A stretch of 64,000 bases of DNA. It comes from Candidatus Poribacteria bacterium. GTDB lineage: Bacteria > Poribacteria > WGA-4E > PCPOR2b. The notes under the pieces were generated by a model. The model saw only the letters and a list, made by a program, of their open reading frames with translations. It was not told the DNA's origin and ran no database searches. The stretch covers positions 2,456,491-2,520,490 of the forward strand of contig OZ242351.1 of assembly GCA_965208675.1 (NCBI GenBank). Direction: 5' to 3'. Positions 32,709 to 37,783 of the stretch are shown here, piece after piece (within the stretch, counting starts at the first letter, position 1; each line of letters starts with the position of its first letter). Both the position numbers and the translations under genes were made by a program.

Positions 32709-33287
32709 ATGGACTTACAACAGATTAACATTAAGGTCTTCGTTACGGAAGACAGTCATATCAGTTACGAGAACTTCATTAAAGTTTTCAACCGGTGGAT
32801 GGAGGAAGCAGATCAAGACGACTACTTGAACTACGCCGACTATTCCTTTACACATGCAGGCCCCGGCGTGCTGTTGATTTCCAAACGTGCGAATTATAGC
32901 ATTGATAACGCCCATAACCGCCACGGTTTACTCTACAACCGGAAGCACAAATCGGAAGGGAATAATTCCCAAAAACTGCATCGTGCGTTTGTCGAGACGC
33001 TTCAAAAGTGCCGCCGTTTAGAAGAAGCCGAAGAACTTGAGAATGAAGTTCGGTTCAATGGTGATGACATCCTGTTTATGGTAAATAATCGACATATCGC
33101 CCCGAATACGGATGAGTCATTTCAGGGAATTAGGCAGGAATTGAGTCTTGTGCTTCAGCAGATGTACGGCGGTGATGATTTCACGTTGGAACGCGCATCC
33201 GAGGACACACGAGAGCGGTTTATGATTCGAATTTCTGCGAATGCACAAAAAAGCGTATCGGAGCTTCTCGCAAATCTGGAGGAGTAG
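32709..33287 (+). CDS. hypothetical protein
   Basis: 192-aa ORF in a codirectional gene string. No recognised motifs. Confidence 0.5.
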   Translation: MDLQQINIKVFVTEDSHISYENFIKVFNRWMEEADQDDYLNYADYSFTHAGPGVLLISKRANYSIDNAHNRHGLLYNRKHKSEGNNSQKLHRAFVETLQKCRRLEEAEELENEVRFNGDDILFMVNNRHIAPNTDESFQGIRQELSLVLQQMYGGDDFTLERASEDTRERFMIRISANAQKSVSELLANLEE

Positions 33288-33330: not shown

Positions 33331-34137
33331 ATGTTTAAGTTCAGCAACGAACAGATTGAGCGGTACAGCCGACACATTGTCCTTCCAGAAGTTGGCGGTA
33401 TGGGACAAACCAAGCTCCTCGAATCGAAAGTCCTGCTCATCGGCGCAGGCGGTTTGGGTTCACCGGCGGGGCTATATCTAGCGGCGGCTGGCATCGGAAC
33501 GTTGGGAATTATCGATCAAGACGTCGTTGATCTGAGCAACCTTCAACGACAAATTCTGCACGGTATGAGTGATATTGGCCGTCTAAAAGTTGAATCCGCG
33601 AAGGAGACGATTGCGGATATTAATCCTGATGTACAAGTTATCACTCACACCGAACGCCTATCATCGGAAAATGCACTTGAAATTATTGGGCAGTACGATT
33701 TGGTCGTTGATGGATGTGATAATTTCCCCACCCGCTATCTGATAAATGACGCTTGCGTAATGCTGGGCAAGCCGAACGTACACGGCAGCATATTTCAGTT
33801 TGAAGGGCAAGCGACTGTGTTCTACCCGGGAAAAGGACCGTGTTACCGCTGCCTCTATCCCATGCCTCCGCCGCCCGGTATGGCGCCAAGTTGCCAAGAG
33901 GCAGGCGTATTTGGTGTATTGCCGGGAATTATCGGGAACATACAAGCGTTTGAGGCTATCAAGATTTTGCTCGATATTGGCGAGCCGCTTATCGGCCGGT
34001 TAAAACTATTCAACGGGTTAACAGCAGAATTCAAAGAACTGAAACTACGGCAAGATTCAGAATGTCCGATGTGCGGAGAAAATCCCACCATCCATGAACT
34101 GATTGACTACGAGGAATTCTGTCGAGTGCAATGGTGA
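33331..34137 (+). CDS. moeB: MoeB/ThiF/HesA-family adenylyltransferase (E1-like)
   Basis: RYSRHIVLPEVGGMGQTKL..VLLIGAGGLGSP, DNFPTRYLINDAC, and C-terminal CYRC / CPMC zinc motifs. Confidence 0.85.
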   Translation: MFKFSNEQIERYSRHIVLPEVGGMGQTKLLESKVLLIGAGGLGSPAGLYLAAAGIGTLGIIDQDVVDLSNLQRQILHGMSDIGRLKVESAKETIADINPDVQVITHTERLSSENALEIIGQYDLVVDGCDNFPTRYLINDACVMLGKPNVHGSIFQFEGQATVFYPGKGPCYRCLYPMPPPPGMAPSCQEAGVFGVLPGIIGNIQAFEAIKILLDIGEPLIGRLKLFNGLTAEFKELKLRQDSECPMCGENPTIHELIDYEEFCRVQW

Positions 34138-34299
34138 CTTCATTGATAGTGCGCCGTCGGTAAACACGCCGCTTTTAAAGGGTAATGTGGAAAATACTTG
34201 CCTAGCGCAGAATATTCATGTAGAATTGTAATTCATCAGATTGGGTAATGTTCTAATGACCTAAATGTTAGGGAAATTGACTGCATAGGAGGATTCGCA

Positions 34300-34530
34300 A
34301 TGAATCTACAAATTGAATATTGCACGGCTTGAGGCTATTTACCCACAGCCGTCAGTTTGACGCAAGAACTATTGGATAAATACAAGACAGATATTAAGGG
34401 ACTCACCCTTGTCCCGGGCAGCGGCGGCTGCTTTGAAGTGACGAGTAATGGAGACCTAATCTACTCTAAACTCCAAACAGGCGAGTTTCCAACCACGAAG
34501 CAGATTACTTCGGCAATTGAAGCGAACTAA
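34300..34530 (+). CDS. Rdx/SelW-like selenoprotein with in-frame UGA (Sec) in a CxxU motif
   Basis: AGGAGG lies 7 nt before the ATG at 34300. Translation: MNLQIEYCTA-U(TGA 34330-34332)-GYLPTAVSLTQELLDKYKTDIKGLTLVPGSGGCFEVTSNGDLIYSKLQTGEFPTTKQITSAIEAN-stop. This matches the Rdx pattern IEYCxx[CU]...L.PG.GG.FEV...G.LI.SK...G.FP. Hairpins lie around and after the UGA. Confidence 0.8.
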
Positions 34531-34691
34531 GAAACAGGTGTGTGATTGTACAAGTCCAGTGGAACGTATGGATCTCTCCCTGCGTTCCACAAACATCCAC
34601 GCCCTTACTCTCCCTACCTATTTCCTCAACTCCAGCAGATATCTCCCATCCCCATGATTACAGGTGCAAAGCGCTACTTTTAACTCCTACT

Positions 34692-35495
34692 TTACTCCAC
34701 TGCGACGATGGACACATTCCATAGATCGGCTTGCCTGCAGAGCGCTTCCTGATTTACCACAAATGTACGCTTCGCTTCAACAGCGAGAACGCTGCCGTTG
34801 ACTTCATGCAGCGCTTTCAGAGTTTCACTGCCGACAGTCGGCACGTCAATTCGGAAATCGTGATTCGAAGCGGCGGCTTTAGCAACAACTATCCCTTTAC
34901 CCCCAAGTGCCCCGCCCCGTTGAATCGCCTCGTCGGTTCCTTCAATAGCTTCTATAGCGATTGGCAGCAACGATTTGACGATTACGGTTTGTCCAATGTC
35001 CAAGTTTGCAACTTGGCGAGCTAACTGCATACCGTACTTCAAATCCTTCCATTCCGATGCCGTTGGCTGCTTTTTCGACAATACTCCCGCTTTAGGCATT
35101 AAACCCTTGAGGAAACGGTGTTGCTCAATGACAGATAGCCCTTTCGATTCAAACCTATCGATAATCGCAGCGATGCTGGCGCGGATACCCTTGCTGCGTG
35201 TACTCGCAAGAATTTTTGCCGCTGTTGAATCTAATAGAAAGGGACGAAGGAGCACGCTTTTATGGATTTTTCCAATAATCACAATTTCCCGGACGCCTGA
35301 ATCGAGAAATATTCGCGTAACCTTTTGGATTTGTCCAATTCCAGCCGGAAATATTTCGGAAGAGACATCCGCCAATCGCTCGGAGGGATTTTTCGTGATA
35401 GGGACGACAACTGGCACGCGGCCGTAATCGATCGCGGCTTGCGCCATCAAAACGGGCAACTCTCCCATGCCGGCAATTATCCCGAGTTTCTCCAT
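34692..35495 (-). CDS. lpxI: UDP-2,3-diacylglucosamine pyrophosphatase LpxI (DUF1009 family)
   Basis: 267 aa. LGIIAGMGELPV N-terminus and KAAASNHDFRIDVPTVGSETL match the LpxI pattern. Adjacent to lpxA. Confidence 0.7.
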   Translation of the reverse strand: MEKLGIIAGMGELPVLMAQAAIDYGRVPVVVPITKNPSERLADVSSEIFPAGIGQIQKVTRIFLDSGVREIVIIGKIHKSVLLRPFLLDSTAAKILASTRSKGIRASIAAIIDRFESKGLSVIEQHRFLKGLMPKAGVLSKKQPTASEWKDLKYGMQLARQVANLDIGQTVIVKSLLPIAIEAIEGTDEAIQRGGALGGKGIVVAKAAASNHDFRIDVPTVGSETLKALHEVNGSVLAVEAKRTFVVNQEALCRQADLWNVSIVAVE

Positions 35496-35544: not shown

Positions 35545-36336
35545 CTAAACCCCGATACCTCGTTGAGAGTTCTCAATAAAATTCAGGAGATATTCCACTT
35601 CCTCATCCGGTTTGACTTCACTTCTGACCCGCGCAATTGCTTGGGTGAAATCAACCTTAGAACGAAAAAGAATACGGTGTGCCTGTTTGAGATGCTTAAT
35701 TGTTTCCGGCGAGACGGATGCCATAGGATGGATTCCAGAGGAGCCGAGACCAACTACATTCAATGCACGGACACGCGCAGGGTGGCCATCGGAAATGGTG
35801 AACGGCGGCACGTCCTGCACAAATTTCGAACATGCACCAGCCATTGCCATTTTTCCAACCCGCACAAATTGATGAAATGCAGCGTGGGCACCGATTCGCG
35901 CGTCGTCTTCGATTATCACATGTCCGCCCAGCGTGGCGAAATTCGCCATAATCGTTCGATTTCCAACAACGGTGTCATGGGCGATATTCACCCAGTTCAT
36001 TAGCAAGTTGTCATTTCCAACAATCGTTGCGCCATCCTCAACCGTAGATCTGGAAATTGAAACGTACTCTCGCAATACATTCCGATCGCCAACTCGGACA
36101 TAGCTTCGCCAACCCCCGTATTTAAGATCTTTTGAAGGATTGCCGATGGAACACCCGAAGAAGATTTGGCACTCTTCGCCAATGATTGTCCAGCGATCAA
36201 TTTGAACATGCGGGCCAATCACGGTTCCACGACCGATTTGGACCTCATCGCTGATAATTGAGAAGGGACCGACTTCGACGTTCGCTCCGAACTTTGCCGT
36301 TGGCGAAACAATTGCGGTAGGGTGAATATTGCTCAC
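35545..36336 (-). CDS. lpxA: acyl-ACP--UDP-N-acetylglucosamine O-acyltransferase LpxA
   Basis: 263 aa. MSNIHPTAIVSPTAKFGANVEVGPFSII hexapeptide repeats and typical LpxA length. Confidence 0.9.
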   Translation of the reverse strand: MSNIHPTAIVSPTAKFGANVEVGPFSIISDEVQIGRGTVIGPHVQIDRWTIIGEECQIFFGCSIGNPSKDLKYGGWRSYVRVGDRNVLREYVSISRSTVEDGATIVGNDNLLMNWVNIAHDTVVGNRTIMANFATLGGHVIIEDDARIGAHAAFHQFVRVGKMAMAGACSKFVQDVPPFTISDGHPARVRALNVVGLGSSGIHPMASVSPETIKHLKQAHRILFRSKVDFTQAIARVRSEVKPDEEVEYLLNFIENSQRGIGV

Positions 36337-36472: not shown

Positions 36473-37783
36473 CTACGCCGCTGCGTTCTGGTTGAGCGCG
36501 ATTGCTAACTCTCCCTCGGCTGCAAGCGTTCCTTCGACATACGCTTTACCACCGATGCGCGCCCATGTGCGGCGCCTCCGTAGAATTTCAACTTCCAACC
36601 TGAGTTGGTCCCCCGGAATAACAGGGCGCCGGAATTTTGCGTCCTTAATCGACGCAAAATATCCAAGTTGCCCCTCAACAGATTGTTCTTGCAGTAACAA
36701 CCAGGCGCCAAGTTGCGCTAACGCCTCCATCTGCAATACGCCCGGCATCACCGGCTGCTCAGGAAAATGGCCCTGAAAAAATTGCTCGTTGATTGTGAGA
36801 TTCTTGATACCAACTGCCCGTTTTCCCGGTTCAAATTCAATAACCCGATCGAGCATGCACATTGGATAACGGTGCGGTAGAATCCGATAAATCTCTAGGG
36901 ATTCCACCGGGTCTTGCAATGGTTCTCCAATTAGTCTCTTTTCCGCTAGATTTTGAATCAGCTGCGCGTGTAAAGCGTGGCCAGATCGAATCGCAATAAC
37001 TTGTGATTTAGGAAGTTGACCGCCCAAGTAGAGATCGCCAATCAGATCCAAAATTTTGTGCCGCACGAATTCATCTTCAAACCTTAGCGCACCACTGGTG
37101 CGTCCACCTTCATCAACAACAACCACGTTTTCATGAGTCGCTCCTTTACCGATCCCCTGATTTTTGAGCGCCTCAACTTCATCGGCGAAACAGAAACTGC
37201 GTGCAGGCGCAATCTCTTTTTCATAAATCTCTGGCTGGATGGTGTAGGTTGCAACTTGAGACGGTATTTGGGGGTGATCGTACGCGAAGGAGACTTGCAT
37301 TGAATCCGAAGGAAGTAAAATTAGTTGCTTATCATTGTCATAAACAGCGAACGGTTCTGACAGTTCAACCGAGTACCGCGGTGCGTTCTGTTGAATAATT
37401 CCCGCTTCTTTGATGAGATTTACATATTGCAACGCACTTCCATCTAGCGCAGGCGGCTCCGGCGCATTGATGTCAATGCTCACATTATCAATCCTCATAC
37501 CCGCCAATGCCGACAATAGGTGTTCAACGCTGCTGATTGTAGCATCACCGCTGCGTAAGCTAGTACAGCGGGGAACCGCATCTTCATAGTTATCGGGGCA
37601 AACTTTAATCGAGGGGTTGCCGGGGAGATCGATTCGGTGAAAAACAACCCCGTAATCTTCCGGCGCCGATTTAAAGGTTAGCTCAACTGCTTCGCCCAGC
37701 ATCAAACCACACCCCGAAATCGCCGCTTCATTTTGAATCGTCTGTTGCCGCTCCAAATCGAAGTCTCCCTTCCTTGTACGCAC
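36473..37783 (-). CDS. lpxC-fabZ: bifunctional LpxC deacetylase / FabZ dehydratase
   Basis: 436 aa. N-terminal LpxC-like half (GCGLMLGE...HRID...VEHLLSAL). C-terminal FabZ half (LPHRYPMCMLDRV...FFQGHFPEQPVMPGVL). Confidence 0.9.
   Translation of the reverse strand: MRTRKGDFDLERQQTIQNEAAISGCGLMLGEAVELTFKSAPEDYGVVFHRIDLPGNPSIKVCPDNYEDAVPRCTSLRSGDATISSVEHLLSALAGMRIDNVSIDINAPEPPALDGSALQYVNLIKEAGIIQQNAPRYSVELSEPFAVYDNDKQLILLPSDSMQVSFAYDHPQIPSQVATYTIQPEIYEKEIAPARSFCFADEVEALKNQGIGKGATHENVVVVDEGGRTSGALRFEDEFVRHKILDLIGDLYLGGQLPKSQVIAIRSGHALHAQLIQNLAEKRLIGEPLQDPVESLEIYRILPHRYPMCMLDRVIEFEPGKRAVGIKNLTINEQFFQGHFPEQPVMPGVLQMEALAQLGAWLLLQEQSVEGQLGYFASIKDAKFRRPVIPGDQLRLEVEILRRRRTWARIGGKAYVEGTLAAEGELAIALNQNAAA

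Follow-up and report, generated by a model that had tools for sequence, protein, structure and literature searches.

A SelW-like gene of Candidatus Poribacteria with an in-frame UGA that almost certainly encodes selenocysteine

The window analyzed here is a stretch of 64,000 nucleotides from a Candidatus Poribacteria metagenome-assembled genome, and positions 34300-34530 of its forward strand are a genuine gene of 76 codons that encodes a small redox protein of the SelW-like type, with an internal TGA at codon 11 that almost certainly encodes selenocysteine. The features of the locus and those found elsewhere in the host genome are collected in Table 1. With the TGA read as U, the frame translates into 76 residues (MNLQIEYCTAUGYLPTAVSLTQELLDKYKTDIKGLTLVPGSGGCFEVTSNGDLIYSKLQTGEFPTTKQITSAIEAN). 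A sequence-only reading of the window had noted that no full ORF is called across the in-frame TGA at 34330-34332, and under translation table 11 the frame indeed yields just a 57-amino acid piece with a TTG start. The same reading had quoted the 76-residue read-through protein, an AGGAGG ribosome-binding site ahead of the ATG, and two inverted repeats (ACGGCT at 34324-34329 with AGCCGT at 34347-34352, and CGTCA at 34350-34354 with TGACG at 34358-34362 on either side of gtt), all of which were recovered as described. The TGA is not a sequencing or assembly error, because the locus sequence is reproduced exactly in Logan contigs of three runs on the same sample and a contig from another sample, which carries nine nearby differences including a synonymous change at 34320, has none at 34330-34332. 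The public runs found are of uncertain library type, and as contigs they bear on the sequence of the locus and not on its transcription.

The SelW-like gene is intact and probably monocistronic. It is placed between a MoeB/ThiF-type adenylyltransferase gene on the same strand and a group of genes on the opposite strand that includes lpxA. A weak promoter-like site is listed in Table 1 because transcription may start separately here, given the 162-nucleotide gap after moeB and the gene's own Shine-Dalgarno sequence; scans for promoters and terminators around the gene returned candidates at chance level. A functional link to the MoeB-type neighbor was considered and rejected, as the order DUF protein, moeB, lpxI, and lpxA occurs only in the four genomes of the genus, and conservation of neighbors within the genus alone gives no evidence for such a link. 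No conserved operon around the SelW-like gene was found in the other genera or phyla compared.

Table 1. Features at the SelW-like locus and in the host genome. Positions are those of the window unless marked genome.
Feature	Positions	Strand	Remark
192-amino acid protein	32709-33287	+	Precedes moeB-like gene; no significant Pfam match
MoeB/ThiF-type adenylyltransferase	33331-34137	+	PF00899, 283 bits; upstream of SelW-like gene
Promoter-like site, TTGCCT-17-TAGAAT	34198-34226	+	Weak candidate; one site found, shuffles average 1.1
Shine-Dalgarno sequence, AGGAGG	34287-34292	+	7 nucleotides 5' of ATG 34300
SelW-like (Rdx family) selenoprotein CDS, complete	34300-34530	+	76 codons + TAA; Sec at codon 11
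CxxU redox motif codons, Cys8-Thr-Ala-Sec11	34321-34332	+	TGC (Cys8) at 34321-34323
UGA selenocysteine codon (codon 11)	34330-34332	+	Sole in-frame TGA between ATG 34300 and TAA 34528-34530
Bacterial SECIS hairpin, stem CGUCA/UGACG, loop GUU	34350-34362	+	Covariation; synonymous freeze
Truncated 57-amino acid ORF, TTG start	34357-34530	+	Table 11; only ORF in the SelW-like frame
LpxI-like gene	34692-35495	-	By reading of translation
lpxA	35545-36336	-	By reading of translation
436-amino acid ORF, LpxC-FabZ fusion-like, adjoins lpxA	36473-37783	-	By reading of translation
selA + selB + tRNA-Sec, one compact cluster	genome 2131409-2134883	-	Profile matches
selD, itself a selenoprotein gene	genome 4649434-4650483	-	375.8 bits; in-frame TGA in KCAGUASK
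DUF3179 protein, TWUPLC (candidate)	genome 4074884-4075957	+	270 bits; Pfam domain spans TGA
HMA metal-binding domain protein, GLTUGGC (candidate)	genome 3086812-3087204	-	53 bits; Pfam domain spans TGA
Tandem rhodanese, CYUQGGYRS (candidate)	genome 2700124-2700966	-	124 bits; Pfam domain spans TGA
DESCU(G/A)(S/N)GK family copy (candidate)	genome 903704-904945	+	One in-frame TGA
DESCU(G/A)(S/N)GK family copy (candidate)	genome 2539513-2540646	+	One in-frame TGA
DESCU(G/A)(S/N)GK family copy, core only (candidate)	genome 2541666-2542115	+	One in-frame TGA
DESCU(G/A)(S/N)GK family copy (candidate)	genome 2542694-2544232	+	One in-frame TGA
DESCU(G/A)(S/N)GK family copy (candidate)	genome 3422177-3423817	+	One in-frame TGA

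Profile searches of the read-through product were run with Cys substituted for U. The product matches the Pfam Rdx family (PF10262) with 82.3 bits (cutoff 22.6), with residues 3-74 aligned on profile positions 2-73 of 74, and the NCBIfam model TIGR02174 (CXXU_selWTH) with 76.5 bits (cutoff 34.2). The NCBIfam equivalog NF041051 (SelTWH_Campy) scored 81.8 bits, below its cutoff of 88, and by these profile scores the product is a member of the Rdx family that falls outside this specific equivalog. When a profile of 41 homologues was compared with the PDB, the best match was 2fa8 (E 6e-19) followed by 3dex, 2p0g, 2oka, 2obk, and 2ojl; MIEN1 (2ljk) and mouse SelW (2npb, E 8e-8) were also matched. 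In 2fa8 and 3dex the residue aligned with the UGA is the second Cys of CxxC ('YCTQCNW' in 2fa8 against 'YCvaCnY'). Cys-8 and position 11 are invariant among the 41 diverse homologues, and Tyr-7 is nearly invariant or invariant across phyla.

The AlphaFold2 model calculated on the homologue alignment (pLDDT 94.7, pTM 0.81) has the element order β1 (2-8)-α1 (14-28)-β2 (34-40)-β3 (45-49)-β4 (52-56)-α2 (66-75), with the CxxU motif (Cys-8-Thr-Ala-Sec-11) in the loop between β1 and α1. The predicted fold of the SelW-like product is accordingly of the thioredoxin-like β1-α1-β2-β3-β4-α2 type with Cys8-x-x-Sec11 between β1 and α1. A Foldseek search with the model ranks crystal structures of bacterial SelW-related proteins highest (TM 0.90-0.93, rmsd about 1 Å, 33-36% identity), among them 2fa8 with a TM of 0.92 and an rmsd of 1.0 Å; MIEN1 (TM 0.77) and mouse SelW 2npb (TM 0.74) come next and ordinary thioredoxins thereafter, the top 23 matches all being Rdx-family structures. 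Pfam, TIGR02174, the PDB profile search, and Foldseek therefore agree with the Rdx (SelW/SelT/SelH) identity that had been proposed for the read-through product, and the alignment with the second Cys of the CxxC homologues bears out the proposal that the UGA occupies the second redox position.

The Cys-form Rdx structures (Atu0228, 2fa8; SAV_2001, 3dex; VcR75, 2p0g; 2oka; 2obk; 2ojl) share the fold and the position of the motif with the predicted SelW-like product, but have a CxxC motif with a Cys codon, need no SECIS, and are about 20-30 residues longer. Mouse SelW (2npb) and MIEN1 (2ljk) share the thioredoxin-like β1-α1-β2-β3-β4-α2 arrangement with CxxU or CxxC in the β1-α1 loop and are more distant (TM 0.74-0.77, 29-34% identity). 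In eukaryotic SelW the SECIS is located in the 3'-UTR and bound by SBP2, whereas in the bacterial type it is a hairpin in the coding region bound by SelB.

The conservation of the TGA was followed in 61 genomes of the same order, covering 15 genera and 4 families. A single orthologue is present in 60 of these 61 genomes and all 60 contain exactly one in-frame TGA. In the 50 orthologues that were read, U is at codon 11 in every case within the motif EYC-x-x-U-(N/G)-Y, a pattern that argues against a chance TGA, and the start codon is ATG with one GTG, preceded in nearly all by an AGGAG-type Shine-Dalgarno sequence. The residues 5' of the TGA are fixed and their codons vary (Tyr-7 TAC 26/TAT 24, Cys-8 TGC 42/TGT 8, Glu-6 GAA 36/GAG 13), which indicates that the 10 codons before the TGA are translated; the residues flanking the TGA on both sides show purifying selection with synonymous variation. 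A wider scan with one genome per species across bacteria gave 68 loci from Poribacteria, Planctomycetota, Latescibacterota, Chloroflexota, Gemmatimonadota, Actinomycetota, and others, and the 66 of these that could be parsed all have a TGA at the homologous position, with TGT or TGC in none.

Two inverted repeats had been proposed as SECIS candidates, and the comparison separates them: the hairpin at 34350-34362 is conserved and covarying, and the stem that encloses the UGA pairs at the level of shuffled sequences. The conserved hairpin starts 17 nucleotides after the UGA with its loop G (34355) 25 nucleotides after the U of the UGA. Forty-five distinct Poribacteria sequences align without gaps, and in this alignment the hairpin formed by 34349-34354 and 34358-34363 is 91.5% paired, compared with just 18-43% for control registers slid by 1-3 columns, and its core of 4 base pairs is paired in 45/45 sequences and recovered by RNAalifold. 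The pair 34352/34360 occurs as U-A (22 sequences), U-G (9), and C-G (14) with no broken case. In the 68-sequence alignment of at least five phyla, compensatory double changes are found at 4 stem pairs, with 31 double-change cells compared with 3.7 in shuffles (none of 500 shuffles as high) and much lower values in the slid controls. Neither G34355 nor U34356 varies among the 45 Poribacteria sequences, and across phyla 68/68 sequences have the loop G. E. coli fdhF has a SelB-binding SECIS hairpin with the loop context CA-GGUC-UG; like it, the present hairpin (CA-GUU-UG) lies in the coding region just 3' of the UGA and has an apical loop G-U, and it differs in having a shorter stem, no bulged U, and a loop G about one codon further from the UGA.

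The hairpin is weakest, among the examples folded, in the genus of the window, where it has 5 base pairs (-4.3 kcal/mol, z -1.2, with 28/200 shuffles folding as well) and a C-C mismatch at the sixth stem pair; the hairpins of other lineages folded singly reach -7.6 to -11.5 kcal/mol (z between -2.3 and -4.2). The segment 34318-34400 folded alone has a z of -0.47, and since single-sequence folding is close to the shuffles in both cases the assignment of the SECIS in this genus rests on comparison. A Rfam search gave no match at the gathering threshold in the window and nothing relevant at E≤10 in 34250-34600, a result that is uninformative because to our knowledge Rfam holds no SECIS model for the short bacterial type. 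The alternative structure that RNAalifold proposes for the cross-phylum alignment has near-zero energy (-0.15 kcal/mol) and was disregarded. The UGA-enclosing stem ACGGCT/AGCCGT was rejected as the SECIS, being 68.5% paired, a value reached by 144/500 shuffles; it does surpass the shuffles in covariation score and in double-change cells, but one slid register has a higher covariation score (0.175 against 0.125), and the stem shares three bases with the conserved hairpin.

The location of the SECIS inside the coding region determines which codons, and in part which residues, make up the segment Ala-17-Val-Ser-Leu-Thr-21 in helix α1. Synonymous variation is nearly absent in codons 18-21 (GTC 36/36, AGT 50/50, TTG 40/42, ACG 27/27), compared with 1.4-2.0 bits of synonymous entropy in the flanking four- and six-fold codons and 22% AGT for Ser elsewhere in the same genes. 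The replacements Val-18 to Ala and Thr-21 to Ala correspond to the two sides of a change from a U-A to a C-G pair (GUC..ACG against GCC..GCG), so that Val-18/Thr-21 and Ala-18/Ala-21 covary as the two sides of a single SECIS base pair and RNA pairing shapes the protein sequence. Codons 17-21 (34349-34363) show cleanly, in a natural gene, how a SECIS constrains the protein sequence that it lies in.

The host genome (4.89 Mb, a single contig) contains the machinery for selenocysteine insertion. Profile matches above the curated cutoffs were obtained for selB (367.5 bits), for selA (595.6 bits), which directly adjoins selB, and for the tRNA-Sec (77.5 bits), which is about 80 nucleotides from selB on the same strand. 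selD likewise scores above its curated cutoff, and the in-frame TGA in its KCAGUASK motif is at the known Sec/Cys site. Aragorn reports 48 tRNAs, among which the anticodon UCA is carried by the tRNA-SeC only and the tRNA-Trp has CCA. The presence of selA, selB, selC, and selD, which had been predicted from the locus, is thus confirmed by the genome search. The moeB-like gene ends at a TGA (34135-34137) where the MoeB profile also ends, and no internal in-frame TGA was found in selA or selB; a general reassignment of TGA is excluded on these grounds.

These observations bear on the ways in which the locus could be read other than as a selenoprotein gene. That the UGA is read as Trp, Gly, or Cys, or mostly terminates translation so that the locus is chiefly a selenium-sensing leader of 10 residues, we consider very unlikely. 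Two database entries show W at the homologous TGA, and some termination is expected at the codon, as bacterial Sec insertion competes with termination by release factor 2; however, the only UCA anticodon belongs to the tRNA-SeC and the tRNA-Trp is CCA, TGA serves as an ordinary stop in moeB and does not occur in frame within selA and selB, the UGA stands where Cys-form homologues have their second redox Cys, and it is followed by a conserved SECIS-type hairpin. Still less probable is that the gene proper is the 57-amino acid ORF from TTG 34357, with the 30 upstream nucleotides and the TGA forming a 5' leader or a small uORF. Gene callers do give such products of 56-63 amino acids in relatives, but the Pfam Rdx alignment begins at residue 3, the first 10 residues form strand β1 in the model with a pLDDT of about 97, Tyr-7 and Cys-8 are conserved across phyla, the conserved ATG and Shine-Dalgarno sequence are at 34300 and not at 34357, and a product started at 34357 is without β1 and the entire CxxU center. 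A dead Rdx pseudogene, with the TGA as a nonsense mutation or assembly error, has a negligible probability: under table 11 the frame stops at codon 11, and the exact truncated product is absent from a collection of 15 billion proteins, but independent read assemblies agree on the TGA, both of its sides are under purifying selection with synonymous variation, and its conservation at homologous positions in 60/61 related genomes and in 66 homologues of other phyla, with a Cys codon in none, effectively refutes this reading.

The best explanation, which we hold with high confidence, is that of an intact SelW-like Rdx gene in Candidatus Poribacteria whose UGA codon 11 is decoded as selenocysteine through SelB and the downstream hairpin. 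By analogy with the established bacterial pathway, SelA would make Sec-tRNA from Ser-tRNA(Sec) using selenophosphate provided by SelD, and SelB carrying Sec-tRNA(Sec) would bind the hairpin at 34350-34362 via the conserved loop G-U and deliver selenocysteine at the UGA, where release factor 2 would otherwise act. The product may be a thiol/selenol oxidoreductase, as its motif and fold and the literature on eukaryotic SelW suggest. In such a mechanism, Sec-11 would attack an oxidized substrate (a disulfide, sulfenic acid, or glutathionylated thiol), Cys-8 would resolve the adduct to give an intramolecular Cys8-Sec11 selenenylsulfide, and a cellular thiol system could then re-reduce it. A redox function and an interaction with glutathione have been suggested for SelW (PMC1088965), and in the literature no demonstration of an oxidoreductase mechanism was found for any bacterial SelW-like member.

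Bacterial SelW-like selenoproteins with a CxxU motif have long been described and are abundant (Zhang, Fomenko and Gladyshev 2005, PMC1088965; Zhang and Gladyshev 2008, PMC2398784). The GOS data contain 427 Sec forms of the SelW-like family, the most abundant in the marine samples (PMC2398784), and Cys homologues of the family are scarce in organisms that use Sec (Zhang et al. 2006, PMC1794560), with which the all-TGA pattern of the homologues examined here agrees. The Poribacteria gene belongs with these proteins (Pfam PF10262, formerly PF05169; TIGR02174) by profile score and shares with them the place of the CxxU motif, a length of about 75 residues with the UGA near the N terminus, a small hairpin after the UGA whose apical loop contains a G, the marine setting, and the large excess of Sec over Cys forms. 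Nothing essential is different, the distinguishing features being the Poribacteria host and a SECIS stem of just 5 base pairs in the genus. Poribacteria are among the listed sources of Sec-containing [NiFeSe] hydrogenases (PMC13582414), and no paper was found in the literature that mentions the SelW-like gene of Candidatus Poribacteria. The gene is a correctly identified, unannotated member of a well-known family and will not surprise a specialist; it supports selenocysteine decoding in an uncultured sponge-symbiont lineage, and its main value is for annotation, with the knowledge of selenoproteins unchanged.

The annotation gap claimed for the locus is real, as the gene is missed or truncated by gene callers. 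Public protein collections contain pieces of 56-63 amino acids that start after the TGA, some of which are labeled 'selenoprotein W-related protein' in IMG. Two public entries of 76 amino acids have W at the Sec position, probably through application of a table with TGA as Trp to short contigs. Trp at the Sec position is a second route, besides truncation, by which selenoproteins are mis-recorded. A simple rule that combines the Rdx profile, a TGA at codon 11, and a hairpin with a GUN loop 17 nucleotides downstream would be enough to find the gene in 60 or more Poribacteria genomes, as well as in many of the Planctomycetota, Chloroflexota, Latescibacterota, and Gemmatimonadota.

The genome was also scanned crudely for ORFs that become complete when a single TGA beside a Cys is read through. 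Most of the 344 raw candidates were false, and those retained were backed by paralogy or by a Pfam domain that extends across the TGA. The scan also recovered the SelW-like gene and SelD. The candidates with a spanning domain are a DUF3179 protein, an HMA metal-binding domain protein, and a tandem rhodanese in which the U is presumably at the position of the active-site Cys. It is possible, with the balance tipped slightly against, that the SelW-like gene is one visible part of a Poribacteria selenoproteome that is unusually large, lacks annotation almost entirely, and includes these three proteins and the DESCUGSGK family described below. If so, a single-copy gene present in 60/61 genomes and never found with Cys would suggest that the sponge symbionts have a core redox function specific to Sec, and the DESCUGSGK family may be an undescribed selenoprotein family.

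The proteins with the DESCU(G/A)(S/N)GK motif form a paralogous family of about 380-550 amino acids with adjacent Cys and Sec residues and no Pfam match, and from their sequences are a candidate lineage-amplified selenoprotein family. Four of the five copies listed in Table 1 came from the genome scan and the fifth from the search in relatives. Of 41 related genomes, 20 encode the family, and a genome may have as many as eight copies, often in tandem; one in-frame TGA is found in 69 of 71 matches. The TGA is followed by a hairpin of the form GAGGGC-loop-GCUCUC, and a minority of the full-length homologues carry Gly instead of U at this position.
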